Assembly (NCBI GenBank): GCA_017475605.1
Contig: JAFVFD010000002.1
Span: 11,769-75,768 of the forward strand
DNA: 64,000 bases
DNA from: Alphaproteobacteria bacterium
GTDB lineage: Bacteria > Pseudomonadota > Alphaproteobacteria > Rs-D84
Direction of reading: 5' to 3'
Within the stretch, counting starts at the first letter, position 1, and the number at the start of each line of letters is the position of its first letter. This document shows positions 41,274 through 64,000 of this stretch, piece by piece. Below the pieces are notes generated by a model that made no database searches, was not told the origin of the DNA, and saw only the letters and a list, made by a program, of their open reading frames with translations. A program made the translations under genes and the position numbers.

Positions 41274-41280
41274 CTTGTTG

Positions 41281-41630: not shown

Positions 41631-41631
41631 T

Positions 41632-41690
41632 TTGAAAACAATGAACATGATCTAATTATCAATATAAAGAAATACTTTGTCCTGCATCAT
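41632..41690. repeat. Direct repeat, right copy
   Basis: See the left copy at 41281..41335. Confidence 0.6.
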
Positions 41691-41719
41691 TTGGTGCAGG
41701 TTTTTTTATAAAAAAAGAG

Positions 41720-46387: not shown

Positions 46388-46415
46388 TTTCAATAAAAAG
46401 CCCCATCTTGCGATG
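46388..46415 (-). terminator. Terminator of giant gene 1 (minus strand)
   Basis: Reverse complement: GCCCCATCgcaaGATGGGGCttttt. Confidence 0.75.
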
Positions 46416-46431
46416 GGGCAGGCGGTTAGTG

Positions 46432-49400
46432 CTACCACGATATATATCCTGGATTACACGTCCGTTCGCACTTTTTGGTGGCATTGTTCCACCGCAGCGA
46501 ACCTGTTTCGTCTGAATATGGGCGATCACAAATTGGGACACATTCGTTGTTGTCCAAATTGTACTTTTCGCCTTGATACAGACATGATGCTATTTCGCAA
46601 CCGGTGCTGTAACTGGCCGCGGCAACTTCGCCCAGAACACTGAACTTGTTGCGACATGCGCTGCACTGTTCGGATGCGTTATTCTTTTCGTATGGGTCGT
46701 TCGTATAGCCCGGTACGCACGATGTCGCAATACATTCGTTCCATGAACCCGTTGCGGTGTTCCATGTCTTTGTACCAACACCGTTCGGGACGTTACACAC
46801 CTGTTCATTTTCAACACACGCGTTTGATGCCAGGTGGAACCCATCTTCACACGATTTTATCGTACAGATGCCGAATGCGCCATGTGCTGCATCCCACTTC
46901 TGTGTGGCAACTGTTGCGTTTGGTGCCACGTCTGTACAATCTTTGACATCTTCCTCACAAACACTGTTGTATGGATGGTAACCAATCACGCAGCTTTCAA
47001 TTATACAGTTTCCATCAGGTTTATAGGACAATGCGTTTTCACGATTGCATGGCTTACATGACCCATTGACCATTTCGTAGTTACTGATACACGCTGTTTC
47101 TATACAATGCCCGTCAACAACTTCTGCCGGGTTACCAGTCGCAGATGTACCAGTGTACTGACAATTGTTTGGCCAATAGGCGGTGGTTTCAACTGGGCTA
47201 AGGGTACAATTATCCTCAACATATCCAGTACACTTGCGGTAACAATCGCTTGCCTTGGTGGCCCCAGGGGCTGAATACATCCAACTGCCATCACCCAGGT
47301 CCGCGCAAGATTTCGCGCCGTTGCCACCTTCGCCGCCCGGTGTTCCATCACAGAAACTGCCCGCTGGACAAGTTACACATTGGCCATTGGACAGTGTATA
47401 ACCTGATGCACAAGATGTAATCGCACATGTGTCTGTGGCAGTATAATAATCATGGCCCGACATCGCATTTGCGTTTTCGCCCATTGTACAGTCGCGATAG
47501 CAATATGCCTTATCTATTGTTCCTGCTTCTGACTTTGGATACAACCCACCAGTCAGATATTCGCAGGTTTCTACTTCCTGTCCAGGTTCACATACACTGT
47601 TTTCTGGACATACGAAGCAGGCACGTTCGCTTTCGCTGGTTGCTGTACGTGTTGTTGTCCCCGCCGGACACGCATACCGCGCCAAATCGCGATCTGGGCT
47701 GTAATACGCATAGTCCGCCACAGAACATTCTATATCGGTCGCATTTGCCAACCAATAACCCGCATCGCAGTACAGCATAGTTGGGGTTCCGCAACCGGCC
47801 AGGTACGCATCATCCGCAACACTCCATTTACATGTGCGTTCGCCACCACCATGTTCCGCAACATACGGTTGTCCATTCTTCCAGCATTCAGATATCGTAC
47901 TGGTGTTGTTGTATGATGTCTTACCTTCGTTCGGACACGCATGACGTTCCAGTTCGTCTTCAATGCTGTAATAGTTGAAGTCTACGACAGTACATGCGAT
48001 ATCTGTTTGTGCCGCCAAATAATACCCACCACGACACTTTGTAATAACCTTGTCAAAGCAATCGCGTCCATAAACCGCACTATTTCCTGTGCCATTTGAA
48101 TACCAGCAACTTTGTGTCCCAGTACCCGACCCATCGGTCGCCGCATAGGCCAAATTCGCCTTGAAGCATTCCTGGACCGTTTCCGCGGTTGTGTTATCAG
48201 ACTTCGTTGTACCGCCATTCGGGCACGCATCACGTGTTAATATATTGTTCGCACTGTAATACCCGACACCGGCCGCTGAACAATCGGTGCCTGTTGTGGT
48301 TGCCAACCAATGACCCGCATCACAGGATGTTATTACAAAGTCTTTACATCTGTCGGAATAGGCCAGGGCTGTTTCGTTGTAATAACATGTTTGTGTACCG
48401 CGTCCATGTGTTGCAACATATGTTGGCAACAATTCTTTATAACATGCCGCACTGCTTTCCGAATTGGCAGGCGATTTACCATCGTCCGGACAGGGTTCAA
48501 TACCTGCCTGGCCAGAATTTGTAACGACGGTTACACCAGGGCAATAGTTGTTTGCCGTACATGGTAAACAGTCTGTTGTCGGATTTTCGCCGGCACCGCG
48601 ATAATATTTACCCACTGGACATGTAATAGGTGCATCGGTCCATTGTGCAGAAACCGTAGCATTGGATGTTGTAAATGTCAGTGCGGCCGTTGTTGTTACA
48701 AATTTGCCGTCCGCATCAACAACAGATACATTATTCCCTGTGTATCCAGCGAATGTCAACACACCCTTGACCGGTTTTGTGGTCAGTGTGGTAATTGCCG
48801 TTGTGGCGGCTGCATTTGAATACCAGCCGGTCGCATACTTCAAATACACCTTGGCCGGTGAACCAGCGGTTGTCGCACCATTGTGATTCAATGTGATTTC
48901 ATACACATTCGGTGTCCACTGGGCAAACAATTCAATATCAGATGCATCAGACGATATATTTGTCGTAACCGTAGTACCCGCGTTATAGCATGTGCCACCA
49001 CCATTCGCCGCGGTGCACCATTTGTTCGCGGTGCTGTACCCGGTGCGTGTATCCACAATCGCCGGTAATGCGCATGCGCCACTGTCGAATGTGCACTTTA
49101 CACTTGGTGCGGTTGAACCCGTACCACCATTTTTGTTAAGGGTAATGGTGTATTCGTGTGCATCGCATGTTGGTGCGGCGGTGTTGTTGTTTTTGACATC
49201 ATAACCGGTCTTGCACACTACATTGTATGAACAAGCATTATATGTTGTCGCGCTGTTACCATACACGATATTTTCCGCGGCGGATACAGTCTTGGAATTT
49301 GCGAAATCCGCAGGTGTTTTATCGCATTCGGTATAGCATGCGGTGTAACTTGCCGCGAATTCTGTTGAACCCGCCCAGCCCGCCGGACATTCCGTTTGGG

Positions 49401-52400
49401 TTGTTGCACCATCACCACTGTAATAACCGCTTGTTGTGCCGGAACACGCGAACGAACCGGCGACCCTGTAAAAGTATCCCGCGTTACAGGTCAAAGCATC
49501 GGCATCCATACAGTTATTATAATCACCACTAACTTCTGTGCCGTTGTAATAGCATGTGGCGAAACCTGTACCATTTGCCCAATTGTGATTTGGATAGCCG
49601 GTTGTTGCGGTATATGGATTATATGTTACATAACAAGTCTCAATACCACGATATTTTTGACCTTCAACCAGGGCGGCCTTGCCCGGGGTGCCATCTTTGT
49701 CGGTCGGACAGTCGTGGAATCCATCTGTATCGCACCACATATCTTCTGGGCAAACATTGGAACTATAGATACATTTGTTATAAGCATTTGTCGTTGTGTT
49801 ATAGGAAACATGTTGGCTTACCACATTAACGGTAGTTCCGTTCAGATTCTTGGTTGCTTTACATGTCAAATAACAATCTGTAATCGCTTTACCATTTGTC
49901 GCACTGCCAGTATTTGGTGTGTTGCTGACCACATCGCCAGATGTATCTGTACCCGCGGGGCACACATTTAATTTAGTAGATGTGGTATCTGTTATATTTG
50001 TTTCGTTCCAATTAGTCGGGGCAGGACTCCAATTGCCATCGCCAACCGCAACACAGTCCAGATTTTCATTTGTACTTGTTGCGCCGTCTAATTCATCATA
50101 GTATCCAGCATCACACTTGCGCATTGTATAACTGTTGCCGCAATTGATTGAATAGGTGTTGTTAACAGTGCTCCAATGGCAACGTTTTGTGCGACCACCA
50201 TGAGTTGTCTTTTCCCAAATGCCTTCGCGGACACAACCTTCTATCGAGCCACTTTCATCACCATCTGTGGATATCGTATTACGGGAATCATCAACATCGT
50301 ACACAGCTTCTGGACAGCGTGTGCGTGCGGTAAAGTTGGTCGCACTGTAATATTGATAACCAACCAAAGAACAGTCAGTTGTTGTTTTGGTTGTATCCAA
50401 CCACCAACCACTGTTACATGTCAATATTTCAATTGTATTACAGTCGGAATTATACTTGCCCGCACTGTAATGGCAAACCTGCTTACCCTTACCATGATCT
50501 GCGCTGTATTGTACTGTGGCAAAGCAGTCTGATTCTTCGTCTCTGCCATTGTCAGAACCAACACTTGGGGCAACATTGGAAAGCGCGGTGCCGTTCCAGG
50601 TTTGTGCCGGGGTATATGTTGTCCCCGCAACCGCAGTTGGACAGGCGTTTATAAAGTGATTCTGGCCATCGCGGTCTTCGTCGCTGTATGCGACACCACC
50701 CGGACACCATGACCCATTCGGACAAGACTTACATGCGTTGTCTGCATCATCAAAATATTGTCCCGCATTACATGTCTTGGTCTTTTTAGCAACCCAACTT
50801 GCTGTCAGGGTTGTTGTAGTTGTGGTATCGGTATAATTTACCAGTTTATTGGTCGCCACGATTTGACCGGTGCCATTTATCACAGCAACCTGGGTTCCGC
50901 CAATCGTTGCATCATAGCCAGAACAATTCTGTGAGCCCTTGGTTGGCAGCACGATGCTTGTTATCGCGTTTGTCGCGGCGGCATTTGAATACCAGCCTTT
51001 GCCATATTTCATATAGATTGGACCATCTGTACCACCGGTACCACCATCTTTTGCTAATATGAATGTATAGATGTTTGGTTCACATGTTGTACCAGATGTA
51101 TGATAGCCGGCAACGCATACTGGGTTTTGCCAGGTGCATGTTCCAAATGTACCACTTGTTGTAACGGTTTTGTTCGTTGGGTTGTATGCCGTTATGGTCC
51201 CGGCAAAACTGACCGTTTCCGCAACCGGCGCACGTGTACCAATTACTTCGCCATTGTCGGTAACATTCACCGATGAACAAGAGTTATAACATGCTGTCGG
51301 CAAAGCACTCTTTTCGCCTTCTGTTGTGGAATTGATGTGTCCAGGCAAAGCACTACATGGATAGCGCGCCATACTTACAGCGTCTTCTGTGTTATTTGTC
51401 GGGGCGGGGCTCCAATTGCCTTTACCCGCTGGTTCACAGGTAGAAGAATCTTCTGCAACGCGATAATAACCACCACTGCAGTATTTAATTTTTATAGATT
51501 CACAGTTCTTATACCCGGCACTTGAATCATCAACATAATTGCAAACCTGGTCGCCACCACCGGTTCCATTGGCCAAGGCCACACCTGTTCTTGTCGTTTT
51601 ACATGCGGTAACAGCAGAACTGCCCGCCGGTGATGTTACGGCCCCGCCAGATGTGTCTGTTGGGCAAGTCTTATGGCACCCGTCATCTGCCTTGTCTTTG
51701 TCTTCGTAGTCAACCTGGCCACCTGGGCAATAGAAGCCAGCAGGGCATTCTGCGTCAGAACCAGTTAACCCAGCGGTACATGTGAACAAGTTTGTTGACC
51801 AACGGGCATACAACGTGTCAAATACACCCGCGGTTGATGCGGTGCCGCCTTCGGCTGTGTCGGCAATACCAATGGTTGTTGCTACCGACAGATTACCAGA
51901 GGCATCGATTACTTGAACCCCACCTGTTTTTTCAGATACGGTATAGTAGCCCATAAATGTGTGATTTTCCCATGTCGGCGGTGTAATCTTGGTTACCGTT
52001 GTGCCAAAGTTAGTCAAAGACCACCCAATTGAATATTTTTCATATATGGTCTTGTTTGTGCCCGGCGCACCGTTAAGGTCAAGTGTTATTGTGTACACCT
52101 TGGGATCACATGTACCCGCTGTTGCGTTTTTATCATAATTGCCCATGCAGGTATATGTCATGGCACAACTTGACGGCATCGCGGTACATCCGCATAACAC
52201 ACCGTCTATATTATTACAAGTGCCATCGCAATAATAGTCTGCACCACTTGTTTTTGCGTTTTCATTTTGGGTGCATGTCTTATTGTTGGCTGGGCATACT
52301 TGCGGTGTACAATACAAAGAGCATGTTGTATAGCATGTTCCACACGCACCACCTGTGTTGCCAAGTATCGACTGATTGTAGCCGGTTGTACTACAAGATT

Positions 52401-54987
52401 CGCATGTTCTTGTTTCTGTATTTTCGAAATATCTGTTCTTACACCAAACTTGTTTAAGTTGGCATGCAGTATTGTTTACATTAGTACATGCAGAACTTCC
52501 ATAATCTGAAATACCAGCAACCTTGTTTTCTGTATCATAAGAACAATTTGTTGAGTTTGTTGGGCATGTGCTTGGTTCAACACAAGTTGCGGTGTTACAT
52601 GTTTTATAGCAGCCCGCAGATGTTGTCGATGCCGCATCAGACTTGGTATATTCCGATCCCAATGTTGTACAGGCAACAAAGCATCCCGCGCTACCTTCAA
52701 TAGCAGTTCCGGTGCCCGGACAGTATTTACCGTCGGTTGGGCAATCTACGTGTTGTTCGCCATCGTAGTATTTACCAGCCTGACATTGAACGGTATTTTG
52801 AGACCAATGTGCATATAGTGTTGTATTGGTGGTCTTATCCCAAAGACGCAAAGAAACACCACTTGCGGAATAATATTGTGTTCCGCCTGTTTGTGCATCA
52901 AAATACCCGGCAAAAGACCATGTGGCGCGTGTCGGCAATTCAGAAGCAGACAAGGCCGGCAGATGCGCATCGTATGTCGCCGTAACTGATGATTTACAGC
53001 CCGTTCCACACGTGCCTTCATTTGCGTTCAGTGTAACTTGATATTCTAATGGTTCGCAATATGTGCCATCATCACTTACTTTATATCCTTCTGTACAAGA
53101 GAATGGTTCGTCATCGCCCGGACAGGTGGCATGTGGAACGCATGCGTTACAACCGTTGCCGGACAGATAATAATTTTCAGCACACGCAGTTGCCGCGCAA
53201 TTGTTTTCCCCATTTTTATGATAAATGCCAGATACCGTCTTTGAACCCGCAACATCGGATACCTTACATTCACGATAACAATAATTCGAATCGGTTGTTC
53301 CCTGGACTGAATAAGGGAATGTCGAATTAGATGCCGAACATAATGTACAATTTGTCGCGGTCGTAGATGCAAAGTAATTAGCGGCAGCCACAACCGGCGC
53401 AACAACCGTTTTGTTACATGTGTTTGTGTTTGTTTCACAGCCGCTCTTTATGGTGCCATCGGCGGTACCTGTCGCGTTCGAATATGCGACATAATCGCAT
53501 GTCGCCGGTGTACAATCTTGGAATGTGGCAGAAACGCAACCGTTTGGTAATGTTTCAATATGTGCGCCACTTGATGTACGCTGTTTGGTCTCGCTGAAAC
53601 ATTGGGTGATGGCGGTCGATGTCGTGCTTTCTGTGTGTGGGTATGCCGTAGGGCATGTTTCGCATGCCGCATTCGCCTTGGCGGATGATGCCTTGTACTT
53701 GTTGTATCCGCATGCAGTCCACACCGCATAAACCGTTTTGTCAGTTGTTATTGTTATTGTATACGAACCAGTCGTCGCAGATGCAGATGTTGCCCAGCCA
53801 CCAAATACATAGCCCGCACGATAGAACGAGTTTGTATCACCACTGGCCAGTGTACATTCAACCCCGGATGCACATTGTTTGTTTGCTGGTTTTGTCCCAT
53901 CACCACCATTCAGGTTATATGTTACAGTGAACGTATCTTGGGAATAATTGCCGGTAAATGTAACTGTGCCGGAATACACCCCAAGGTTTTCATAGGTACA
54001 CGCAATACCGGTTTGTCCACTGCCGAATGATTTAGTAACCAAAGTACTTGGAACCCATGATCCAAATGACCAATTGTCAACAGTTGGTGCGGTTGCCGCA
54101 TTAAATGTTTCGCCATATGTACATGACGCAGGGGTTGTTGGTGCAGTACCTTTTGTTGGTGCCCAAACAAAGTTAATCGTGTTTGGTGTCGCGGTACATG
54201 TATATGATGTCGCACCTGCGGTTGAATTGGTTTGTGTGGTATTTGTGGTATAGCCTTGGTCGGCTTCTACACTATACACACACTTGTTGTCGTTTGAAGT
54301 TGTGGATGCGGTACAGGTCTTTACCCCCGTACCCTTGGTGGCAAGACACGCACTACATGCATACGGTGCAGACCCTGTGCGAACATATTTTGAACTACAT
54401 GTTTTAATCGTACAAAGGTTAGTTATAATATTGTTGTTCCAGGCCGTTGTTTCCCAGTTTGCGACATTAGACGCATTGGCGCAGTTTGCATCGCAACTGG
54501 TCTTGCCGGTACCACTGGTGGTTTTGCCTGCGGCACACGCGGTACAGGATGTGTTGCCGGTACCGGTATTGTATGAACCTGTGGCACACGCAATACACGC
54601 ACTTTCGGCACTGCTGCCGGTGCTGGCATTGTATGTTCCGGCGGAACATGCTGTGCGACCACCAACATCATCATAATGTACAGTAACTCCGCCCGGACAA
54701 TATCCGCCGGCGGTACAGGTCGTTTCGCCCGCACCAGCGGTTGCTACATACTTACCGGCCGTTGTTGTTAAATAACAGTTGTTTATGCCACCTGTGGTAT
54801 TATCAGATGCACTGTTTGGATAGTTTGTTGGGCATTTTGCGCACTGACTGGACCCATCAAGGTAATAACCGGCATTACAGCTGATGTATGTTTTTTCGCA
54901 TGAATAGCCCTCGGCAAAAGAATTCGCCGAAAATGCGAACAGAAACAAACCAACGAAAAACCCGAGAAAACAGCGCTTTCTTCCCAT
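46432..54987 (-). CDS. Giant secreted cysteine-rich repeat protein 1 (~2850 aa). It has Listeria-Bacteroides (Flg_new) repeats, ephrin-receptor-like CxxCPxGxYC modules, a reiterated ~70-aa Cys module, and a ~500-aa C-terminal region shared with gene 2
   Basis: Signal peptide MGRKRCFLGFFVGLFLFAFSANSFA, with the start at 54987 preceded by AGAGAGGAAG. YTITLNKNGGTG...TGYSTANKWCT and YEITLNHNGATTAG...FAGY are Flg_new-like. Many modules of the type CLPCTANNYCPG and CKSCPNGSWCPGG. Repeated module CDAGYWL..C...YYS..R..CP.G. Confidence 0.85.
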   Translation of the reverse strand: MGRKRCFLGFFVGLFLFAFSANSFAEGYSCEKTYISCNAGYYLDGSSQCAKCPTNYPNSASDNTTGGINNCYLTTTAGKYVATAGAGETTCTAGGYCPGGVTVHYDDVGGRTACSAGTYNASTGSSAESACIACATGSYNTGTGNTSCTACAAGKTTSGTGKTSCDANCANASNVANWETTAWNNNIITNLCTIKTCSSKYVRTGSAPYACSACLATKGTGVKTCTASTTSNDNKCVYSVEADQGYTTNTTQTNSTAGATSYTCTATPNTINFVWAPTKGTAPTTPASCTYGETFNAATAPTVDNWSFGSWVPSTLVTKSFGSGQTGIACTYENLGVYSGTVTFTGNYSQDTFTVTYNLNGGDGTKPANKQCASGVECTLASGDTNSFYRAGYVFGGWATSASATTGSYTITITTDKTVYAVWTACGYNKYKASSAKANAACETCPTAYPHTESTTSTAITQCFSETKQRTSSGAHIETLPNGCVSATFQDCTPATCDYVAYSNATGTADGTIKSGCETNTNTCNKTVVAPVVAAANYFASTTATNCTLCSASNSTFPYSVQGTTDSNYCYRECKVSDVAGSKTVSGIYHKNGENNCAATACAENYYLSGNGCNACVPHATCPGDDEPFSCTEGYKVSDDGTYCEPLEYQVTLNANEGTCGTGCKSSVTATYDAHLPALSASELPTRATWSFAGYFDAQTGGTQYYSASGVSLRLWDKTTNTTLYAHWSQNTVQCQAGKYYDGEQHVDCPTDGKYCPGTGTAIEGSAGCFVACTTLGSEYTKSDAASTTSAGCYKTCNTATCVEPSTCPTNSTNCSYDTENKVAGISDYGSSACTNVNNTACQLKQVWCKNRYFENTETRTCESCSTTGYNQSILGNTGGACGTCYTTCSLYCTPQVCPANNKTCTQNENAKTSGADYYCDGTCNNIDGVLCGCTAMPSSCAMTYTCMGNYDKNATAGTCDPKVYTITLDLNGAPGTNKTIYEKYSIGWSLTNFGTTVTKITPPTWENHTFMGYYTVSEKTGGVQVIDASGNLSVATTIGIADTAEGGTASTAGVFDTLYARWSTNLFTCTAGLTGSDAECPAGFYCPGGQVDYEDKDKADDGCHKTCPTDTSGGAVTSPAGSSAVTACKTTRTGVALANGTGGGDQVCNYVDDSSAGYKNCESIKIKYCSGGYYRVAEDSSTCEPAGKGNWSPAPTNNTEDAVSMARYPCSALPGHINSTTEGEKSALPTACYNSCSSVNVTDNGEVIGTRAPVAETVSFAGTITAYNPTNKTVTTSGTFGTCTWQNPVCVAGYHTSGTTCEPNIYTFILAKDGGTGGTDGPIYMKYGKGWYSNAAATNAITSIVLPTKGSQNCSGYDATIGGTQVAVINGTGQIVATNKLVNYTDTTTTTTLTASWVAKKTKTCNAGQYFDDADNACKSCPNGSWCPGGVAYSDEDRDGQNHFINACPTAVAGTTYTPAQTWNGTALSNVAPSVGSDNGRDEESDCFATVQYSADHGKGKQVCHYSAGKYNSDCNTIEILTCNSGWWLDTTKTTTDCSLVGYQYYSATNFTARTRCPEAVYDVDDSRNTISTDGDESGSIEGCVREGIWEKTTHGGRTKRCHWSTVNNTYSINCGNSYTMRKCDAGYYDELDGATSTNENLDCVAVGDGNWSPAPTNWNETNITDTTSTKLNVCPAGTDTSGDVVSNTPNTGSATNGKAITDCYLTCKATKNLNGTTVNVVSQHVSYNTTTNAYNKCIYSSNVCPEDMWCDTDGFHDCPTDKDGTPGKAALVEGQKYRGIETCYVTYNPYTATTGYPNHNWANGTGFATCYYNGTEVSGDYNNCMDADALTCNAGYFYRVAGSFACSGTTSGYYSGDGATTQTECPAGWAGSTEFAASYTACYTECDKTPADFANSKTVSAAENIVYGNSATTYNACSYNVVCKTGYDVKNNNTAAPTCDAHEYTITLNKNGGTGSTAPSVKCTFDSGACALPAIVDTRTGYSTANKWCTAANGGGTCYNAGTTVTTNISSDASDIELFAQWTPNVYEITLNHNGATTAGSPAKVYLKYATGWYSNAAATTAITTLTTKPVKGVLTFAGYTGNNVSVVDADGKFVTTTAALTFTTSNATVSAQWTDAPITCPVGKYYRGAGENPTTDCLPCTANNYCPGVTVVTNSGQAGIEPCPDDGKSPANSESSAACYKELLPTYVATHGRGTQTCYYNETALAYSDRCKDFVITSCDAGHWLATTTGTDCSAAGVGYYSANNILTRDACPNGGTTKSDNTTAETVQECFKANLAYAATDGSGTGTQSCWYSNGTGNSAVYGRDCFDKVITKCRGGYYLAAQTDIACTVVDFNYYSIEDELERHACPNEGKTSYNNTSTISECWKNGQPYVAEHGGGERTCKWSVADDAYLAGCGTPTMLYCDAGYWLANATDIECSVADYAYYSPDRDLARYACPAGTTTRTATSESERACFVCPENSVCEPGQEVETCEYLTGGLYPKSEAGTIDKAYCYRDCTMGENANAMSGHDYYTATDTCAITSCASGYTLSNGQCVTCPAGSFCDGTPGGEGGNGAKSCADLGDGSWMYSAPGATKASDCYRKCTGYVEDNCTLSPVETTAYWPNNCQYTGTSATGNPAEVVDGHCIETACISNYEMVNGSCKPCNRENALSYKPDGNCIIESCVIGYHPYNSVCEEDVKDCTDVAPNATVATQKWDAAHGAFGICTIKSCEDGFHLASNACVENEQVCNVPNGVGTKTWNTATGSWNECIATSCVPGYTNDPYEKNNASEQCSACRNKFSVLGEVAAASYSTGCEIASCLYQGEKYNLDNNECVPICDRPYSDETGSLRWNNATKKCERTCNPGYISW
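48660..49290. repeat. Near-identical intragenic repeat, copy 1 of 3 (Flg_new pair unit). The other copies are at ~57320..57960 and ~59700..60250
   Basis: The ORF track shows identical spurious peptides (MPPPFAAVHHLFAVLYPVRVSTIAGNAH..., MIQCDFIHIRCPLGKQF...) at all three places. A DNA comparison by eye shows only scattered mismatches over ~500 bp. Boundaries are approximate. Confidence 0.8.
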
Positions 54988-55061
54988 AACTTCCTCTCTT
55001 TTATATTTCATGGTAGAAAAAATATATGGGGTAGTGCAAGAATAAAATTAACAAAATATAA

Positions 55062-55092
55062 AGATTAACAATACTCCCCGCGGTAAAGGCGG
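55062..55092 (-). terminator. Terminator of giant gene 2 (minus strand), in the 92-nt gap between the paralogs
   Basis: Reverse complement: TCCCCGCctttaccGCGGGGAgtattgtt. Confidence 0.65.
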
Positions 55093-55103
55093 GGAATATT
55101 TTA

Positions 55104-58100
55104 TTACCACGATATATATCCTGGATTACATGTCCGTTCACACTTTTTGGTGGCATTGTTCCACCGCAGCGAACCTGTTTCGTCTGAATATGGTTTGGCA
55201 CAAATTGGGACACATTCATTATTTTCCAAATTGTACTTTTCGCCTTGATACAGACATGATGCTATTTCGCAACCGGTGCTGTAACTGGCCGCGGCAACTT
55301 CGCCCAGAACACTGAACTTGTTGCGGCATGCGCTGCACTGTTCGGATGCGTTGTTCTTTTCATACGGGTCGTTCGTATAGCCCGGCACGCACGATGTCGC
55401 GACGCATTCGTTCCATGAATTTGTTGTGGCATTCCATGTCTTTGTACCAACACCATGTTCAATGTCGCATGCTTGTTCGTTTTCAACACATGCGTTTGAC
55501 GCCAGGTGGAACCCATCTTCACACGATTTTATCGTACAGATGCCGAATGCGCCATGGGTCGCATCCCATTTCTGAGTCGCCGCGGTTGCGTGTGGTGCGG
55601 CGCAGCCTTTGACATCTTGTTCACAAGTGTTGTTGTATGGGTGATATCCGATTGTACAACTTTCAATCACGCAATTTCCGTCTGATTTATAGGACAGGGC
55701 ATTTTCACGATTACATGGCTTACACGACCCATTAATCATTTCATAATGGCTGTTACATGATGTTTCAACGCAACGTCCGTCAACAACTTCCGCTGGGTTA
55801 CCGGTTGCAGATGCACCAGTGTACTGACAATTGTTCGGCCAATAAGCAGTATTTTCAACCGGTGTTAATGTACATGTGTCTTCAATATATTCTGTACACA
55901 TACGGTAACAATCGCTTGCCTTATTAGCACCTGGGGCTGAATACATCCAACTGCCATCACCCAGGTCCGCGCAAGATTTTGCGCCGTTGCCACCATCGCC
56001 ACCCGGTGTTCCATCACAGAAACTGCCCGCGGGACAGGTTACACATTGACCGTTGGATAAACTGTAACCCGGTGCGCACGATGCAATTTGGCATGTGTCC
56101 GCGGCGGTATAGAAATCGCGTCCAGACATGGTGTTTGCGTTTTCGCCCATTGTACAGTCGCGATAGCAATATGCGGCATCAGTTGTTCCGGCATCTGATT
56201 TTGTAAATTGTCCACCGGTTAGACTATCACACGTTGCCACCTCTAATCCTGGTTCACATACACTGTTTTCTGGGCAAATAAAGCATGCGCGTTCATTTTC
56301 ACTGGTTTGTGTGCGTGTTGTAGAACCCGCCGGACACGCATACCGCGCCAAATCGCGATCTGGACTGTAATACGCATAGTCCGCCACAGAACATTCTGTA
56401 TCTGTTCCGTTCGCCAACCAATAACCGCCGTTACAATATGTCATTGTCGGAACACCGCAACCGGCCAGATAGGCATTATCCGCAACACTCCACTTACATG
56501 TGCGTTCACCACCACCATGTTCCGCAACATACGGCTGACCGTTCTTCCAGCATTCAGATATCGTACTTGTGTTATTGTATGATGTCTTACCTTCGTTCGG
56601 ACACGCATGACGTTCAAGTTCGTCTTCAATGCTGTAATAGTTGAAGTCTACGACAGTACACGCGATATCTGTTTGTGCCGCTAAATAATACCCACCACGA
56701 CACTTCGTAATAACCTTGTCAAAGCATTCGTGTTTATAGACGGCATCGTTTCCGGTACCACTTGAATACCAGCAACTTTGTGTCCCGGTACCCGAAGAAT
56801 CTGTTGCGGTATAATCAAGGTTTGTCTTAAAGCATTCGTCAACGGTTTCCGCGGTTGTGTTATCAGACTTTGTTGTACCGCCATTCGGGCACGCATCACG
56901 TGTTAATATGTTATTCGCGCTGTAATACCCGACACCGGCCTCCGAACAATCGGTGTCTGTTGTGGTTGCCAACCAATGACCCGCATCACAGGATGTTATT
57001 ACAAAGTCTTTACATCTGTCGGAATAGGTCAGGGCATTTTCATTGTAATAGCATGTTTGTGTACCACGACCATGTGTCGCAACATATGTTGGCAACAATT
57101 CTTGGAAACACATTGTCGCACTTGCGGTACCAACCAAAGACTTACCGTTGTCTGGGCATTCATCGATACCTGCCTGACCAGAGTTAGTCATTACGGTTAC
57201 ACCAGAACAATAGTTGTTTTCCGTACATGGCAGGCAGTCCGTTTCGGGCATTTCACCGGTGCCACGATAATATTTACCCGCCGGACATGTAATAGGCGCA
57301 TCGGACCATTGTGCCGTCAATGTGGCATCGGCCGTCGTAAATGTTAATATCGCGGATGTTGTGGCGAATTTACCATCAGAATCGATTACAAAAACATTGC
57401 TTGTATTCTTGTATCCGTCAAATTTTAATACACCCTTGACCGGTTTTGTGGCAAGTGCTGTAATTGCCGTTGTGGCGGCTGCATTAGAATACCAGCCGGT
57501 CGCATACTTCAAATACACCTTGGCCGGTGAACCAGCGGTTGTCGCACCATTGTGATTCAATGTGATTTCATACACATTCGGTGTCCACTGGGCAAACAAT
57601 TCAATATCAGATGCATCAGACGAAATATTCGTCGTAACCGTAGTACCCGCGTTATAACATGTACCACCACCATTCGCCGCGGTGCACCATTTGTTCGCGG
57701 TGCTGTACCCGGTGCGTGTATCAACAATCGCAGGTAATGCGCATGCGCCACTGTCGAATGTACATTTTACACTTGATGCGGTTGAACCCGTACCACCATT
57801 TTTGTTAAGGGTAATGGTGTATTCATGTGCATCGCATGTTGGTGCGGCGGTGTTGTTGTTTTTGACATCATAACCGGTCTTGCACACAACATTGTACGAA
57901 CATGCGTTATATGTTGTTGCACTGTTACCATATACGATGTTTTCTGCGGCGGATACAGTCTTGGAATTCGCGAAATCCGCGGTTGTTTTGTCGCATTCGG
58001 TATAGCATGCGGTGTAACTGCCGGCGTTAGCCGTTGAACCAGCGCAACCGGCCGGACAGGCAATTTGATAAGTAGAAGAGCCTGCCTGCGCGACGGTCGG

Positions 58101-61100
58101 TTTGGTTTCGCCCGCAAAATAGGATTGTTCAGGGCTGTAATAACAAGTATCAACAGACGAACATTCCATGCCGGTCTTGTAGTAATAACCAGCATCGCAC
58201 GTCAATGCGCCCATATCTGTATAATTAGAGTATGTATTGGTTGATTTTTTATAGAATGCCTTTACCCAACCTGTACCCTTGGTCCACAAATTGTTATCTA
58301 TAGATTTGAACGGATTGTACAGAATGTAACATGTATCAATATCGCGATACTTCATGTTGTCAACCAAGACAGCCTTGCCGGTTGTGCCATATTCGTCGAC
58401 TGGACAATCATGGAATCCATTTGTGTCGCACCACATATCTTCTGGGCATGTATCTGAATCATACATACATGTGTTATATGCGGACTTGCTAGTGTTGTAA
58501 GAAACATATTCATTAACAACTTCGGCTATTGTTCCATTAAGATTCTTGGTTGGGTTACATTTCAACCGACAGTCTGTGATAAATTCTGCTGTTTCCGTTG
58601 GTGTACCGGGGTTAGTGCTTGTTACATCTGTCGCGCCTGTGCCGGCTGGACATGCGTAACGAACAAGTGCAGCATCTGGACTGTAATATGCATTACCCGC
58701 CACAGAACATTCTATATCGGTCGCATTTGCCAACCAATAACCAGCATCGCAGTATAACATGGTTGGTGTTCCGCACCCGGCCAGGTACGCATTATCTGCA
58801 ACACTCCATTTGCATGTGCGTTCGCCACCACCATGTTCCGCAACATATGGTTGACCGTTCTTCCAGCACTCTGATATTGTACTGGTGTTGTCGTACGTGG
58901 TTTTACCTTCGTTCGGACACACGTGGCGTTCCAGTTCGTCTTCCGCACTGTAATAATTATAGTCGGCCACAGAACAAGTCTTGTCGGAAGCATTTTTCAA
59001 ATAATATCCGCCACGACATTTTGTAATGACTTCATCAAAGCAATTGCGTCCATAAACCGCATTATTCCCGGTACCACTTGAATACCAGCAACTTTGTGTC
59101 CCAGTACCCGACCCATTAGATGCCGCGTAATCCAGATTTATCTTGAAACATTCCTGGACTGTTTCCGCGGTTGTATTATCAGACTTTGTTGTACCGCCAT
59201 TCGGGCACGCATCACGTGTTAATATATTGTTCGCACTGTAATACCCGACACCCACCGCCGAACAATCTGTATCGTTTGTATTTTTCAGATAATAACCTGC
59301 ATCGCAAGATGTCATAACAAAATCTTTACAGTTCGCAGAATAGGTCAGGGCATTTTCATTGTAATAACATGTTTGTGTACCGCGTCCATGTGTCGCAACA
59401 TAGGTTGGCAACAGTTCCTTGTAACATGCGGCACTGCTTTCCGAATTGGCCGGCGATTTTCCACCGTCCGGACATGCGTTTAATCCACGTACACCGTCAT
59501 CGGTCGCAAACGAGCCGCCCGGGCAATAATGGTTTTCGGTACATGGCAAGCATGTTGAACCAGAACCACTGTAATATGTTTTTGCCGCGCATGTTGTGTT
59601 CCCGGCCGGCCATTTTGCCGTAATTTCCGTATTTGTTGATGTAAATGTCAGTGCCACCGCAGATGTGCTAAACTTGCCATTTGTGCCAATGATTTCGTTG
59701 TCGTTCGTATCATAATAGCCCGCAAATTCATAACCTGTTTTCTGGGGTTTGGTGACAAGTGTGGTAATCGCCGTTGTGGCGGTCGCGTTTGAATACCAGC
59801 CGGTCGCATACTTCAAATACACCTTGGCCGGTGAACCAGCGGTTGTCGCACCGTTGTGATTCAATGTGATTTCATACACATTTGGTGTCCATTGGGCAAA
59901 CAATTCTATATTTGATGCATCAGACGATATATTTGTCGTAACCGTAGTACCCGCATTATAGCATGTGCCACCACCATTCGCCGCGGTGCACCATTTGTTC
60001 GCGGTGCTGTACCCGGTGCGTGTATCAACAATCGCCGGTAATGCGCACACACCACTGTCAAATGTACACTTTACACTTGGTGCGGTTGAACCCGTACCAC
60101 CATTTTTGTTAAGGGTAATGGTGTATTCATGTGCATCGCATGTTGGTGCGGCGGTGTTGTTGTTTTTGACATCATAACCGGTTTTGCACACAACATTATA
60201 TGAACAAGCATTATATGTTGTCGCGCTGTTACCATACACAAAGTTTTCCGCGGCGGATACAGTCTTGGAATTGCTGATGCTTGCGGGGGTCTTGTTACAT
60301 TCGGTATAGCATGCGGTGTAACTGCCGGCGAATTCTGTTGAACCCGCCCAGCCGGCCGGACACTCTGTCTGGGCTGTTGCACCGTTTCCGCTGTAATAAC
60401 CGGTTTCTGTGCCGGAACACGCGAACGAACCAGCAATTTTATAATAGTATCCAGCATTACATGTTTTTGCATCAACATCCATACAGTTAGAATAATCGTT
60501 TGTTGAATTGGTATAGAAACACTTTGCCCAACCAGTACCATTTTCCCAATTGTGATTTGGATAGCCGGTTGTTGCGGTATATGGATCATATTTTACATAA
60601 CATGTATCAATACCACGATATTTTTGACCTTCAACCAATGTTGCTTTACCTGGTGTGCCATCTTTGTCGGTCGGACAGTCGTGGAATCCATCTGTGTCGC
60701 ACCACATATCTTCTGGGCAAACATTGGAATCATAAACACAAGTGTTATATTTATTCGTACCATAAGACACAGTCGGTGTTTTTACTTCGACGGTTGTACC
60801 ATTCAGATTCTTGGTTGGATTACATGTCAAATAGCAGTCCGAAATAGAACCAGATGTTGTGGTCGCTGTGTCTGGGGTTGTGCTTACCACATCAACCGCG
60901 CCTGTGCCAACCGGACAATCATAACGTTGTGTCGAAGAGCCCGGGTTTTGCATGCTTGGTTGTAATTCTTCGCCCGAGAATGCTGACTGTGCAGGGCTGT
61001 AACGTCCTTTGCCAACAGGTACACAATCGCGGTCGCCATCAGAATTAGTATACGAACCATCGTCATAATAACCCGCATCACAAGTTACAATCACAGATAC

Positions 61101-64000
61101 ATTACAGTTGTATGAATACCCGGTTGATATATTCGTGTCAGATTCATCAGATTTGTGATAGCAATTACGTCTGTGGCCACTGTGTCCGCCCGTTGGTTCA
61201 TACCAGATATTACCACGATAACATTGTGATACCTTTTCAGAAACATCGGTTTCGGTTGTAATAGTTGGGTCTTGGTCTGTATTTGGACACTTTGTCCTTG
61301 TTGTAACAAGATTCGGACTGTAATACTGATAACCAACATTAGAACAGTCTTTTGTCGTTTTTGTTGTATCCAACCAGTGTCCAATTGTACAGGTCAAAAT
61401 CTGTTCGTCTTTACAATTATCAACATACTTGTTCGTTGCGGTATTGAAATAGCATGTTTGGCTTCCTGCGCCCTGGGTTGCGGAATATTTCACATTTGAT
61501 GCAAAACAGTCTGACTTTTTGGTCGAACCCTTGGCCGACGAAACCGATACCGTCAATGTTTGGTTGTTGGCATTGGTCGCGGCGGTATATGTGCTGGCGT
61601 CTGCCGGGCATGTGTCAAGTCCGGACACACTGCCGTTGTCCTGGTATGGTGTCGTGCCGGTACAATATGACCCAGCGGGACATTCAGTACATGTTGTGCC
61701 ATACCCTGTGTAATATGTTCCCGCGGCGCAATTTACGATTGGTATTTCGTCCCAATTTGCAGTGATAAGGGTTGGTGCCGTAAATACAGTATAGTTGGTC
61801 GTTAATTTACCTGTCCCATCAATTATTTGTTGGCCGGCCGCAAAATACCCACCGAATGTATTTCCAATGGATACAGGTTTTGTAACACTTGTAATAGGTC
61901 CAGAAACCGCCTTGGTTGTGGAATTATAATTTGAATACCAGCCTGTATTATATTTCAAATAAATATCGTATGTAGCGGTATTGCCATTAACACTGCCACC
62001 GTTATGATTTAATGTTATCTTGTATACATTTGGTTCGCAGGTTTCGCCAGATGGTATATATCCAGTATCGCAATCTGGGGTTTTATAAGTACAGGCCGGT
62101 ATCGTTGTTCCGTTAAAGGAAACTGTATCTGATGTTGGAACACGTGAACCATGGTCAATATTTATCGTTGAACACGTATTATAGCAATCACTTGCGGAAT
62201 CGCTGTCTGAATCTGTTGTTGTAACCGTTGAATTCGCGCCACTCAGATTGCTACATAAAAATCTATCTGTATCGCCCGCTGGACTGTATGCGCCCTTGCC
62301 AACGACAGCACATGTTGTTGATGCGGTTGATACACGATAGTGTCCGCCAACACAACTTGTAATCTTGATTGTACAATCTTTATCATAAGATGTTCCACCA
62401 AAGAAGCAGGTTTGATCGCCCGCGCCGGTTACAGGTGTTTCGTCCAATTCAACATTTGCGCGTGTTGTTTGGCATTGATTGATGCGTGTACTACCGGTGT
62501 CGGCTGTGGCGACATCGCCGTTTTTAATGTCGGTTGGACACTTGCGGGCGCACCCGATTTCTTCATCATCTTTGTCTAATTCTGAAACGATTTCACCCGG
62601 ACAATAATAGCCAATCGGACAGGCGGTTGTTTTGTCTGATTTTTTGCCGGCTTCGCATTGGAATGGTGTTGCATCACCACAGTTTGGACTTGTTTTGTTT
62701 GCAACACCGGCGGAACCGCTGAATGTGCCACTGGCATTGCCGGCATTATTATATCCGTATTCGCATGTATAGGTATACTTGCAAACATTGTTTGATACAC
62801 CGGTTACAGTACATGAATCGACTTTATCGCCAGGTGTACATGTGCAGCCCGCAAATTGAGCATACCATTTGGTTGTGTTGTTTGCGACGACCTTGGCGGC
62901 GGTAATACCATCACTTGTTATATAACCACTGGCATCAATATATTTGGTTCCGTTGCTTGATGCGCTGAAATAACCCAAGAATACGGCATTGGTTTTTGTT
63001 GGTATGGTAACGTTGTTTGCGCTTGCTGTCATCGCCTTGGAACGCGCACTGTCTTTGTAAACATTAGTGGCATAAGTGGTGTAAATCGTGCCGGAACCGT
63101 TCGCGCCACCGTTGGTGCTGTCGTCCAGGCTGATACTGTAATTGTTTGGGGTCCATGTTGCCGTAAGTGTTATCGTTGCACCCGCAACCGTTGTCGCGGT
63201 GCTGATTGACGCATCGGCGGCATATGTTGGGCTTGTGCAATTACCAGTGCTGGCGGAACATGCCCAACCCGCAAACGAATAACCCGTTCTAGTATAGGTG
63301 TTTGCTGGGGCCTTGCATGTGCCATTATATGTACACGATGTTGGACTTGTTGGTGCGTTGCCAAAACCGCCTGTACCGGCATTATATGCAACATTAAATG
63401 TGTTCGCGGTCCAAGTTGCCGTCAAAGTGATTGTTGCGCCCGCCACAGTTGTGGCCGTATTGATTGCTGCACCCGCGGCATATGTTGCACTTGCGCAACT
63501 GCCACTGCTGGCGGAACATGCCCATCCGGCAAATGTATATCCTGGTTTAGTATATGTGTTCGATGGGGCCTTGCAGTTGGTGTCATCATATGCGCACCAT
63601 GTTGGACTTGATGGGGCGGTGCCAGATGCACCAGTTCCCGCATTATAGGAAACATTAAATGTGTTTGCGGTCCAGGTGGCTGTAAATGTTACAGTACCCT
63701 TGTTATAGTGCAGGTTTTTGAATTTGGTTGCCTTGACACCAGCAAGCGATGTGTCCGTTGTTGAATTATCACCGTAATAGTGGGCAACCTTGTTATCCAT
63801 GCCGGCGATGTTCCAACCAGTAAATGTATAGCCTGTTTTGGTCGGATTGCTTATAGTTATTTCTGTGTCGAATGTTGCACTTGTTGGGTGCGATGCGCCG
63901 TGTGTCCCGCCGTTAAGTGTATATGATATGGTATAAGAAGTGGCCTTGCATGTTTCGCCGTTTGCTTCATATCCATTGACACATGTCGTTGTATACGTAC
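55104..64000 (-). CDS. Giant secreted cysteine-rich repeat protein 2 (>2960 aa). It is a paralog of gene 1, and its 5' end runs beyond the window's right edge
   Basis: The reading frame stays open from the annotated Met at 63800 up to position 64000 and reads as further Flg_new repeats (..GYTFTGW..). It ends in the same C-terminal ~500 aa as gene 1 (..CNPGYISW). It contains two of the three near-identical repeat copies. Confidence 0.85.
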   Translation of the reverse strand, partial: TYTTTCVNGYEANGETCKATSYTISYTLNGGTHGASHPTSATFDTEITISNPTKTGYTFTGWNIAGMDNKVAHYYGDNSTTDTSLAGVKATKFKNLHYNKGTVTFTATWTANTFNVSYNAGTGASGTAPSSPTWCAYDDTNCKAPSNTYTKPGYTFAGWACSASSGSCASATYAAGAAINTATTVAGATITLTATWTANTFNVAYNAGTGGFGNAPTSPTSCTYNGTCKAPANTYTRTGYSFAGWACSASTGNCTSPTYAADASISTATTVAGATITLTATWTPNNYSISLDDSTNGGANGSGTIYTTYATNVYKDSARSKAMTASANNVTIPTKTNAVFLGYFSASSNGTKYIDASGYITSDGITAAKVVANNTTKWYAQFAGCTCTPGDKVDSCTVTGVSNNVCKYTYTCEYGYNNAGNASGTFSGSAGVANKTSPNCGDATPFQCEAGKKSDKTTACPIGYYCPGEIVSELDKDDEEIGCARKCPTDIKNGDVATADTGSTRINQCQTTRANVELDETPVTGAGDQTCFFGGTSYDKDCTIKITSCVGGHYRVSTASTTCAVVGKGAYSPAGDTDRFLCSNLSGANSTVTTTDSDSDSASDCYNTCSTINIDHGSRVPTSDTVSFNGTTIPACTYKTPDCDTGYIPSGETCEPNVYKITLNHNGGSVNGNTATYDIYLKYNTGWYSNYNSTTKAVSGPITSVTKPVSIGNTFGGYFAAGQQIIDGTGKLTTNYTVFTAPTLITANWDEIPIVNCAAGTYYTGYGTTCTECPAGSYCTGTTPYQDNGSVSGLDTCPADASTYTAATNANNQTLTVSVSSAKGSTKKSDCFASNVKYSATQGAGSQTCYFNTATNKYVDNCKDEQILTCTIGHWLDTTKTTKDCSNVGYQYYSPNLVTTRTKCPNTDQDPTITTETDVSEKVSQCYRGNIWYEPTGGHSGHRRNCYHKSDESDTNISTGYSYNCNVSVIVTCDAGYYDDGSYTNSDGDRDCVPVGKGRYSPAQSAFSGEELQPSMQNPGSSTQRYDCPVGTGAVDVVSTTPDTATTTSGSISDCYLTCNPTKNLNGTTVEVKTPTVSYGTNKYNTCVYDSNVCPEDMWCDTDGFHDCPTDKDGTPGKATLVEGQKYRGIDTCYVKYDPYTATTGYPNHNWENGTGWAKCFYTNSTNDYSNCMDVDAKTCNAGYYYKIAGSFACSGTETGYYSGNGATAQTECPAGWAGSTEFAGSYTACYTECNKTPASISNSKTVSAAENFVYGNSATTYNACSYNVVCKTGYDVKNNNTAAPTCDAHEYTITLNKNGGTGSTAPSVKCTFDSGVCALPAIVDTRTGYSTANKWCTAANGGGTCYNAGTTVTTNISSDASNIELFAQWTPNVYEITLNHNGATTAGSPAKVYLKYATGWYSNATATTAITTLVTKPQKTGYEFAGYYDTNDNEIIGTNGKFSTSAVALTFTSTNTEITAKWPAGNTTCAAKTYYSGSGSTCLPCTENHYCPGGSFATDDGVRGLNACPDGGKSPANSESSAACYKELLPTYVATHGRGTQTCYYNENALTYSANCKDFVMTSCDAGYYLKNTNDTDCSAVGVGYYSANNILTRDACPNGGTTKSDNTTAETVQECFKINLDYAASNGSGTGTQSCWYSSGTGNNAVYGRNCFDEVITKCRGGYYLKNASDKTCSVADYNYYSAEDELERHVCPNEGKTTYDNTSTISECWKNGQPYVAEHGGGERTCKWSVADNAYLAGCGTPTMLYCDAGYWLANATDIECSVAGNAYYSPDAALVRYACPAGTGATDVTSTNPGTPTETAEFITDCRLKCNPTKNLNGTIAEVVNEYVSYNTSKSAYNTCMYDSDTCPEDMWCDTNGFHDCPVDEYGTTGKAVLVDNMKYRDIDTCYILYNPFKSIDNNLWTKGTGWVKAFYKKSTNTYSNYTDMGALTCDAGYYYKTGMECSSVDTCYYSPEQSYFAGETKPTVAQAGSSTYQIACPAGCAGSTANAGSYTACYTECDKTTADFANSKTVSAAENIVYGNSATTYNACSYNVVCKTGYDVKNNNTAAPTCDAHEYTITLNKNGGTGSTASSVKCTFDSGACALPAIVDTRTGYSTANKWCTAANGGGTCYNAGTTVTTNISSDASDIELFAQWTPNVYEITLNHNGATTAGSPAKVYLKYATGWYSNAAATTAITALATKPVKGVLKFDGYKNTSNVFVIDSDGKFATTSAILTFTTADATLTAQWSDAPITCPAGKYYRGTGEMPETDCLPCTENNYCSGVTVMTNSGQAGIDECPDNGKSLVGTASATMCFQELLPTYVATHGRGTQTCYYNENALTYSDRCKDFVITSCDAGHWLATTTDTDCSEAGVGYYSANNILTRDACPNGGTTKSDNTTAETVDECFKTNLDYTATDSSGTGTQSCWYSSGTGNDAVYKHECFDKVITKCRGGYYLAAQTDIACTVVDFNYYSIEDELERHACPNEGKTSYNNTSTISECWKNGQPYVAEHGGGERTCKWSVADNAYLAGCGVPTMTYCNGGYWLANGTDTECSVADYAYYSPDRDLARYACPAGSTTRTQTSENERACFICPENSVCEPGLEVATCDSLTGGQFTKSDAGTTDAAYCYRDCTMGENANTMSGRDFYTAADTCQIASCAPGYSLSNGQCVTCPAGSFCDGTPGGDGGNGAKSCADLGDGSWMYSAPGANKASDCYRMCTEYIEDTCTLTPVENTAYWPNNCQYTGASATGNPAEVVDGRCVETSCNSHYEMINGSCKPCNRENALSYKSDGNCVIESCTIGYHPYNNTCEQDVKGCAAPHATAATQKWDATHGAFGICTIKSCEDGFHLASNACVENEQACDIEHGVGTKTWNATTNSWNECVATSCVPGYTNDPYEKNNASEQCSACRNKFSVLGEVAAASYSTGCEIASCLYQGEKYNLENNECVPICAKPYSDETGSLRWNNATKKCERTCNPGYISW
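57320..57960. repeat. Near-identical intragenic repeat, copy 2
   Basis: See copy 1. Confidence 0.8.
59700..60250. repeat. Near-identical intragenic repeat, copy 3
   Basis: See copy 1. Confidence 0.8.

Follow-up and report, generated by a model that had tools for sequence, protein, structure and literature searches.

Two giant cysteine-rich Flg_new proteins encoded in tandem by an alphaproteobacterium of the Rs-D84 lineage

Organization of the locus

The subject of this analysis is the segment 46432-64000 of a 64,000-nt stretch of DNA from an alphaproteobacterium of the Rs-D84 lineage (assembly GCA_017475605.1, contig JAFVFD010000002.1; the whole stretch is hereafter called "the window"). Two giant paralogous genes, here termed gene 1 and gene 2, are arranged in tandem on the minus strand of this segment and code for proteins of 2,851 and 4,430 aa, respectively. 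The protein encoded by gene 1 is identical to NCBI MBR2285904.1 and that encoded by gene 2 to NCBI MBR2285905.1; both entries bear no annotation beyond [quoted passage not shown]. The full length of gene 2 is taken from three public assemblies: within the window its frame has no in-frame upstream stop, the first 1,466 codons are located outside, and the start lies ~4.4 kb beyond the window. The frames are open over 8.6 kb (gene 1) and 13.3 kb (gene 2). The analysis confirms a preliminary description, made from the sequence alone, of two tandem giant minus-strand paralogs, the second of which begins beyond the window.

46432..54987, minus strand: gene 1, 2,851 aa plus stop, mature protein of ~305 kDa with 191 cysteines
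55104..64000, minus strand: 3' two-thirds of gene 2, codons 1467-4430 of 4,430
55070..55100, minus strand: hairpin directly 3' of the gene 2 stop, 12-bp stem, terminator-like, weak T tail
46400..46419, minus strand: terminator-like hairpin with a T run, 3' of the gene 1 stop

The open reading frame (ORF) of gene 1 extends over 46432-55011 (2,859 codons). Its start is most likely the ATG at 54987 (MGRKRCF) rather than the upstream end of the ORF, because a ribosome-binding site (agagaggaag) precedes this codon, the leader of the paralog lacks an ATG at the corresponding site, and a product of 2,851 aa is predicted in every public annotation. This start lengthens the spacer between the two genes from the 92 nt originally stated to 116 nt; the terminator reported within it does correspond to a hairpin (55100-55070). 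The leader and ribosome-binding site of gene 2 (..ttctaccat.a.atataaaagagaggaagttATGGG) are present again in front of gene 1. Just upstream of the gene 2 leader, outside the window, there is a tRNA gene (9812-9888 of contig L001) and a hairpin.

Domain composition and predicted structure

Both proteins begin with a classical Sec signal peptide, as had been noted earlier, are acidic and contain no other hydrophobic segment. The mature masses are ~305 and ~476 kDa for genes 1 and 2, with 191 and 246 cysteines, i.e. 6.7% and 5.6% of all residues. In gene 1 the signal peptide is followed by a head with the motif "GY(S/T)C..Y.SC.AGYY", which is conserved in the family described below.

54913..54987, minus strand: Sec-type signal peptide of gene 1, MGRKRCFLGFFVGLFLFAFSANSFA followed by EGYSC, read from the sequence
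53722..53931, minus strand: best-scoring Flg_new (InlB B-repeat) domain of gene 1
52804-53043, 51799-52095, 50794-51069, 48916-49152 and 48640-48903, minus strand: other Flg_new domains of gene 1, by motif
between 57306 and 63935, minus strand: nine Flg_new domains of gene 2 (window part), by motif
47638..48639, minus strand: three ~92-aa six-cysteine modules (C.AGY[YW]L ... YYS ... CP.G), gene 1
46435..47637, minus strand: family-conserved Cys-rich C-terminal domain ending in ..GY.SW, gene 1

Flg_new (PF09479) is the sole Pfam family that scores above threshold in either protein. With a cut-off of 27 bits, the profile gives 67.4 for gene 1 and 82.4 for the portion of gene 2 inside the window, over 3-8 stretches, so the proposed Flg_new repeats stand well clear of the threshold in both genes; the corresponding NCBIfam model TIGR02543 is just above its cut-off on gene 1 (21.2 vs 20.95). 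Individual copies, which are too divergent from one another for single-sequence phmmer iteration, were located by motif: gene 1 has six and gene 2 at least ten. Cysteine-rich stretches of 226-243 aa lie between the Flg_new domains in the first half of gene 1. Beyond Flg_new, searches of Pfam, NCBIfam and PDB sequences returned nothing for >80% of either protein, and neither RTX repeats with the C-terminal signal of type I secretion systems (T1SS), nor a C-terminal beta-barrel, nor a two-partner secretion (TPS) domain were found in Pfam or NCBIfam at E-values up to 5.

Towards the C-terminus, a triplet of the six-cysteine modules precedes a C-terminal domain of ~400 aa, whose 300-aa core contains 34 invariant cysteines. 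In gene 2 the module-triplet block is present at 56304-57305 and at 58617-59609, and the C-terminal domain at 55107-56309. AlphaFold2 models calculated from family alignments present both the triplet (mean predicted confidence, pLDDT, of 91.8) and the last 300 aa (pLDDT 90) as a string of beta-hairpins. When the triplet model was compared using Foldseek, the best matches were Elapor1 (E = 9e-6 to 4e-5) and the Chlamydomonas mastigoneme protein MST1 (probability 0.99-1.0), followed by EphB2 (E = 0.018) and receptors of the tumor necrosis factor receptor (TNFR) family. The cysteine domains of MST1 have been reported to resemble the cysteine-rich domain of ephrin receptors, and their disulfide ladder has been credited with the robustness of the filament (PMC10602792). 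The predicted models thus support a resemblance of the module triplet to the ephrin-receptor-like disulfide ladders of eukaryotes.

Repeats and sequence exchange between the two genes

Comparison of the two genes with each other reveals several paralogous segments:

48773..49389, minus strand: repeat copy 1, gene 1, tandem Flg_new pair (YTITLNKNGGTG.. / YEITLNHNGATTAG..)
57442..58058, minus strand: repeat copy 2, in unit U2 of gene 2
59746..60362, minus strand: repeat copy 3, in unit U1 of gene 2
58674..60845, minus strand: super-repeat unit U1 of gene 2, ~2.2 kb, comprising a spacer, two Flg_new domains and three ~92-aa Cys modules
46433..49389, minus strand: 3' block of gene 1 that is collinear with its paralogous counterpart in gene 2, 55105-58058
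54464..55022, minus strand: 5' paralogous tract, 35 nt of leader and ribosome-binding site together with the initial ~175 codons; identity of 88.7% to the 5' end of gene 2 (seen in contig L001)

The three near-identical internal repeats of the preliminary description were recovered as segments of ~617 nt, each encoding a tandem pair of Flg_new domains. The copies share 93-96% identity over 300 nt and ~90% over the entire ~617 nt, and a core of ~500 nt (roughly 48,830-49,350 in copy 1) is 93-99% identical. According to blastn, the ~2.2-kb unit is duplicated in gene 2, as U1 and U2 (56358-58580), and has a single copy in gene 1. The collinear C-terminal block covers 983 aa, with 87.3% identity at the protein level and 85.6% at the DNA level (85.9% in the blastn alignment of nt 5623-8579 of gene 1 with nt 5941-8894 of the window part of gene 2). 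The similarity of ~90% attributed previously to the last ~500 aa is thus real (86.5%), but it extends over about twice that length, and the statement that only a few substitutions separate the two C-termini was exaggerated, as there are 67 of them in the last 500 aa. In their middle parts, genes 1 and 2 have unrelated DNA sequences.

The divergence within the shared block is uneven. At four-fold degenerate sites genes 1 and 2 differ by 27% overall and by 10-47% in individual blocks, and this patchiness is significant (chi-square p = 1.6e-4, runs test p = 3e-4, longest identical run p = 0.007). The number of synonymous substitutions per site (dS, Nei-Gojobori) in the collinear block is 0.57 overall, with 0.12 in the Flg_new pair and values of up to 1.4 elsewhere; most of the block falls in the range of 0.4-1.4. 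The young parts are therefore the Flg_new pair and the extreme 3' end only, and "very recent duplication" does not fit as a general description of the locus. Moreover, the nearest copy of the gene 1 repeat unit changes along its length: it is U1 of gene 2 over the first ~500 nt, and U2 thereafter. The ratio of nonsynonymous to synonymous changes (dN/dS) in the shared block is 0.13 overall and 0.00-0.23 in 100-codon windows, i.e. the block is under purifying selection, and with their frames intact both genes are maintained.

In a sister species, the syntenic site between genes for a PIF1 helicase and an HI0933-like protein is also occupied by a tandem pair (P0004 and P0028, of 3,170 and 2,170 aa). 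These two proteins are only 38% identical both in the N-terminal 180 aa and in the region 600-1,000 aa from the C-terminus, and 47-71% identical in the last 600 aa, whereas genes 1 and 2 are 84-92% identical in the N-terminal 180 aa and the C-terminal 1,000 aa. Since the syntenic pair has divergent ends, the tandem pair is old; in the lineage studied here both ends have been homogenized, or one gene has been largely overwritten by the other. Near-identical internal repeats are present in 11 of 81 related loci. The mosaic of dS values, the switch of the nearest copy and the homogenized ends justify calling the locus recombination-prone on an evolutionary timescale, and it is well supported that genes 1 and 2 exchanged sequence in the past.

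Differences among public assemblies

We compared three assemblies of the locus, namely the window, ERZ27256838 and ERZ28654170. They represent essentially one clone, with 0 differences in 11 kb of flanking sequence and with identical gene lengths of 2,851 and 4,430 aa. The window and ERZ27256838 are distinguished by 3 isolated single-nucleotide polymorphisms (SNPs) in ~27.5 kb, at 47975, 52506 and 56941, which lead to two replacements in gene 1 (N/I at aa 2338, D/Y at aa 828) and one in gene 2 (E/A at aa 3819); the assemblies are near-clonal, not identical. Besides these SNPs, ~52 clustered sites differ, and they fall in four tracts, all of them within paralogous segments:

46654..46828, minus strand: assembly-discordant patch in gene 1, 29 sites, gene-1-specific in the window
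49054-49156, 57624-57776 and 59853-59955: further discordant patches

In ERZ28654170 all three repeat cores have been made identical, and the 3' patch of gene 1 (46654-46828) is the same as that of gene 2, which is also the case in contig L006. The latter comes from another sample and was built by the pipeline of ERZ28654170. The window and ERZ27256838 keep copy-specific variants in the repeats. The homogenized version could have arisen by gene conversion outpacing mutation, but we consider the collapse of assembly-graph bubbles roughly twice as likely, because the pattern follows the pipeline and the homogenized version is always the simpler path through the graph. Independent assemblies also break at the giant genes: Logan contig L005 starts 66 nt inside the 3' end of gene 1, L087 starts 265 nt upstream of an ortholog and L007 inside one. 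These contig ends fit repeat-induced assembly breaks. The warning that this region is at risk of collapse was thus well placed, as the three assemblies disagree almost only inside the paralogous tracts, and long reads are required wherever these genes are analyzed for variation or at strain level.

The same observations raise the question whether the near-identity of the repeats and the variation between assemblies are themselves short-read artefacts, in which case the true copy number or sequence would differ from that in the window. The confinement of the discordance to repeats, the equalized cores and 3' patch of ERZ28654170, and the broken contigs point in this direction. On the other hand, the two genes, their exact lengths, the three repeats and the flanks are reproduced by three assemblies of differing naming and assembler styles; every repeat in the window contains copy-specific variants, and such variants cannot be made up by an assembler; neither frame is interrupted along its length; and related species exhibit a syntenic pair and similar internal repeats. 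We therefore regard an artefactual origin of the locus as unlikely; an artefact probably explains the homogenized version, not the locus itself.

The question of phase or antigenic variation

The preliminary description suggested that the locus is potentially phase- or antigenically variable. Such an active system, in which frequent gene conversion or unequal crossing-over would generate antigenic or size variants and possibly switch expression on and off, could draw on the contrast between 3 isolated SNPs in ~27.5 kb and ~52 clustered changes with all four tracts in paralogous segments, on the fact that in each discordant tract one of the versions equals the paralogous copy, on the recurrence of the converted 3' patch in a second sample (L006), and on the mosaic dS and nearest-copy switching, which indicate repeated conversion. 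Against it, the homogenized version comes from one pipeline only (two samples), while the non-homogenized version comes from two other assemblies; this split is the pattern expected of short-read bubble collapse. Most of the shared block, with its dS of 0.4-1.4, has not been exchanged recently.

Nor did we detect the features that typically accompany such systems. There are no simple-sequence tracts near the locus (tandem and homopolymer runs do not go beyond 6-7 T), no invertible element or promoter at the locus, no recombinase or invertase within 10 kb on either side, and no silent donor cassettes or truncated copies in the window or the flanks within 10 kb, to which the search was confined. 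The locus contains only two full-length genes, each with its own ribosome-binding site and leader. The exchanged region shows no sign of diversifying selection (dN/dS does not exceed 0.23 in any window of the shared block), and the lengths of both proteins are the same in all three assemblies. Taken together, these results give no support to phase or antigenic variation, and an active variation system seems to us improbable.

Distribution of the family and the host organism

Homology searches identified 292 related proteins of 1.6-4.8 thousand residues; the named ones come from uncultured Alphaproteobacteria and are annotated in the same generic way as genes 1 and 2. A profile of the C-terminal domain yielded 168 loci among GTDB species representatives, mostly in metagenome-assembled genomes (MAGs) labeled Candidatus Enterousia or "uncultured Alphaproteobacteria/Rickettsiales", from the guts of ruminants, horse, chicken (bird), mouse and human. 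The same profile matched 748 proteins among 1.84 billion cluster representatives, including 281 at E-values up to 1e-30, and the domain is located at the extreme C-terminus in nearly all matches listed. A family member of 2,265 aa is encoded in a circular long-read MAG of 958,618 bp (OZ007020.1, L065). In the literature on Enterousia, Rs-D84, "InlB B-repeat-containing" proteins and giant cysteine-rich proteins of reduced-genome bacteria we did not find a description of this family.

Members of the family have in common a signal peptide and a head with the motif "AGY(T/S)C..Y.SC.AGYY", while their C-termini fall into at least three alternative conserved classes. Both gene 1 and gene 2 carry the family head and the ~300-aa Cys-rich C-terminal domain, and belong to the class that ends in ..GY..W; a second class (..DDSM) is carried by 42 of 120 homologs. 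The lengths of orthologs differ by hundreds of residues. In related genomes (L026, L075, L081, L058, L078) giant genes are also arranged in tandem, often with a member of the ..GY..W class followed by one of the ..DDSM class. The window contains also an ORF of 952 aa (25487-28345, plus strand) with a Sec-like signal and no Pfam match, whose C-terminus (..TTPALNLMTNGGG..NQYTVYDDSL..) resembles that of the second class (..TTPSLNVKVGDTTYYGNMT..YSVHDDSM); it is probably a smaller relative of the giant family that has the terminal module in common with it.

The closest relatives of the window are labeled Candidatus Enterousia and have genomes of < 1 Mb, so the locus, with its 21.9 kb, takes up >2% of such a genome. 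Enterousia/Rs-D84 genomes of ~0.75-1.0 Mb have been reported to lack the tricarboxylic acid cycle, respiratory chains, three glycolytic enzymes and standard transporters for sugars, amino acids and peptides, and a partner-dependent lifestyle has been suspected (PMC12306168). Genes for BamD (YfiO; 18444-19166, plus strand), MurJ (16923-18389), an RlpA-like protein with double-psi beta-barrel and SPOR domains (15983-16855) and PBP5 (36163-37395) are present in the window, as are genes for M23 peptidases. Given BamD, MurJ, PBP5 and the M23 peptidases, the organism is a diderm with peptidoglycan; the retention of the outer-membrane assembly machine and of peptidoglycan bears on how a folded protein of 300-480 kDa leaves the periplasm.

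Proposed function

We propose, with a probability of roughly 0.6, that genes 1 and 2 encode lineage-specific giant rod proteins with a disulfide ladder, which are displayed or released and play a role in attachment, and that they form an old tandem pair with gene conversion. Both proteins would be exported via Sec and would fold in the oxidizing periplasm into a long, acidic, disulfide-laddered rod, in which ephrin-receptor/TNFR-like Cys modules would alternate with Flg_new (InlB B-repeat) domains and the end would be formed by the conserved cysteine-knotted domain of 300-400 aa. On the cell or released from it, such rods could make up protease-resistant fibrils or a coat that would mediate attachment to a partner cell, a host surface or a particle. 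In this lineage, the members of the old tandem pair have traded sequence more than once, through gene conversion or through unequal recombination of their repeat units; both ends and the Flg_new pair were homogenized in the process, and a 2.2-kb unit of gene 2 was duplicated. The data demonstrate the architecture, the membership in the family, the likeness of fold and the history of recombination, from which we infer how the proteins travel beyond the inner membrane, their display on the surface and the function in attachment.

Several observations weigh against this proposal. With a cut-off of 23.1 bits, the Ephrin_rec_like profile (PF07699, formerly named GCC2_GCC3) scores only 17.8 and 17.6, even though some family members have a precomputed match; the earlier label "ephrin-receptor/GCC2_GCC3-like" therefore holds at the level of the predicted fold (Elapor1, MST1) and fails at the level of PF07699 sequence membership. 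Owing to the elongated shape of the models, TM-scores in Foldseek are low (0.14-0.28); the fold assignment of the module triplet rests on local 3Di similarity, and the model of the C-terminal domain has no match among solved structures. In neither protein did we recognize an outer-membrane translocator, an anchor, a lipobox or a sorting signal, and the proteins could instead stay in the periplasm or be released. Finally, some of what looks like recent exchange between assemblies may have been produced by the assembler.

Some of these points lend themselves to a different explanation, namely that the proteins are not adhesins at all, but structural components of the envelope or periplasm (for instance a disulfide-cross-linked layer similar to the cysteine-rich outer-membrane complex of chlamydiae) or secreted effectors with class-specific C-terminal activities. 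A very high cysteine content and the failure to recognize signals for export across or anchoring in the outer membrane agree with this possibility, as does the attachment of at least three alternative conserved C-termini, one of which (the second class) is carried also by the 952-aa ORF of the window, to a common signal peptide and head. Flg_new domains, however, are typical of surface proteins, and the size of 305-476 kDa, the rod-like models and the likeness to extracellular filaments fit display outside the cell better; in addition, no enzymatic or toxin domain was detected by Pfam, NCBIfam or PDB sequence searches. We thus find a non-adhesin role very unlikely. A specific variant, in which the alternative C-termini would be those of polymorphic toxins, was rejected, given the lack of an enzymatic domain and a C-terminal model that is a cysteine-knotted string of hairpins. 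We also considered the terminal ..GY.SW as a signal for the beta-barrel assembly machinery and dismissed it: the motif fits poorly, and in the model it forms part of a disulfide hairpin.

Comparison with known systems places the attachment rods proposed here in a familiar category, the giant repetitive surface proteins of bacteria, and the genes have already been deposited under a generic annotation. What is unusual is the presence of about a hundred disulfides in ephrin-receptor-like modules, and the large share of a sub-megabase genome. With Flg_new/InlB B-repeat surface proteins (PF09479, TIGR02543) of Listeria, Bacteroides, Treponema and others, genes 1 and 2 share multiple Flg_new domains above the Pfam threshold. 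In contrast to the classical members, Flg_new makes up <20% of genes 1 and 2, and the rest consists of Cys modules and a C-terminal domain that the classical proteins do not have; leucine-rich repeats, LPXTG, GW and type IX secretion sorting domains are missing, and the host is a diderm alphaproteobacterium. MST1, Elapor1, EphB2 and the TNFR family resemble the predicted models in the regular disulfide ladder of an elongated rod. However, the identity to eukaryotic ephrin-receptor-like proteins is only 13-19%, the proteins described here are bacterial and carry a Sec signal, and PF07699 remains below its cut-off. MST1 forms an extracellular filament and has polyproline and Ig segments, which genes 1 and 2 lack; the resemblance to MST1 and Elapor1 is one of predicted fold only and implies neither filament assembly nor horizontal transfer from eukaryotes.

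The giant repetitive adhesins of bacteria (the RTX adhesins LapA, SiiE and MpIBP; Bap; FHA-type TpsA; autotransporters) are similar to genes 1 and 2 in their size of 300-480 kDa, beads-on-a-string modules, acidity, recombination-prone near-identical internal repeats and presumed role in attachment. They differ in that genes 1 and 2 have an N-terminal Sec signal instead of an RTX/T1SS C-terminal signal, a TPS domain or a beta-barrel translocator, and in that some 95-120 disulfides would stabilize their products, whereas the adhesins have calcium-binding Ig-like repeats. Gene-conversion systems of antigenic variation (Anaplasma msp2/p44, Neisseria pilE/pilS, Borrelia vlsE) likewise contain paralogs exchanged by conversion, with conserved ends and a variable middle, and the variant coats of gut protists (the variant-specific surface proteins of Giardia) are also cysteine-rich secreted proteins of a gut organism. 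Unlike these systems, genes 1 and 2 are both full-length with leaders of their own, silent cassettes and the structure of an expression site are absent, purifying selection acts on the shared block, and neither length nor arrangement varies among the assemblies.

Candidatus Enterousia/Rs-D84 is widespread in animal and human guts, and the giant family is an obvious candidate for the interface with a partner cell. If the role in partner attachment is true, it would justify the investment of ~2% of the genome at one locus in a metabolically poor organism. The family offers concrete targets for metaproteomics, for localization by antibodies or fluorescence in situ hybridization, and for cryo-electron tomography. 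It also illustrates how the ephrin-receptor-like cysteine ladder, known mainly from eukaryotes, is taken to the extreme in a bacterium. A bolder version of the proposal, which we offer as a speculation with little likelihood of being correct in full, is that private giant disulfide-ladder rods constitute the attachment apparatus of Enterousia/Rs-D84, as counterparts of MST1 and of the cysteine-rich coats of protists, and that in this strain conversion within the tandem pair, far outpacing point mutation (~52 converted sites vs 3 SNPs between near-clonal populations), would vary the surface in real time without dedicated switching machinery.

Genomic neighborhood

We found no transporter gene among the neighbors of the locus. 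The neighboring genes were also considered as a possible dedicated exporter; the downstream pair that recurs in other species codes for SecA and DnaE, which is unspecific housekeeping synteny, and the idea was abandoned. At the other end of the window, an ORF of 319 aa (104-1063, plus strand) that has a signal peptide, contains 6.6% cysteine and matches nothing in Pfam represents a small secreted cysteine-rich protein. A patch of low GC content (39116-42238, 0.35 vs ~0.44) adjoins a tRNA-Ser gene, and the gene calls within it vary between assemblies; it encodes a protein with Mu-F-like/Tlde1/YkuD domains and a phage lysozyme, and resembles either an integrated element or a cassette of toxins or effectors.

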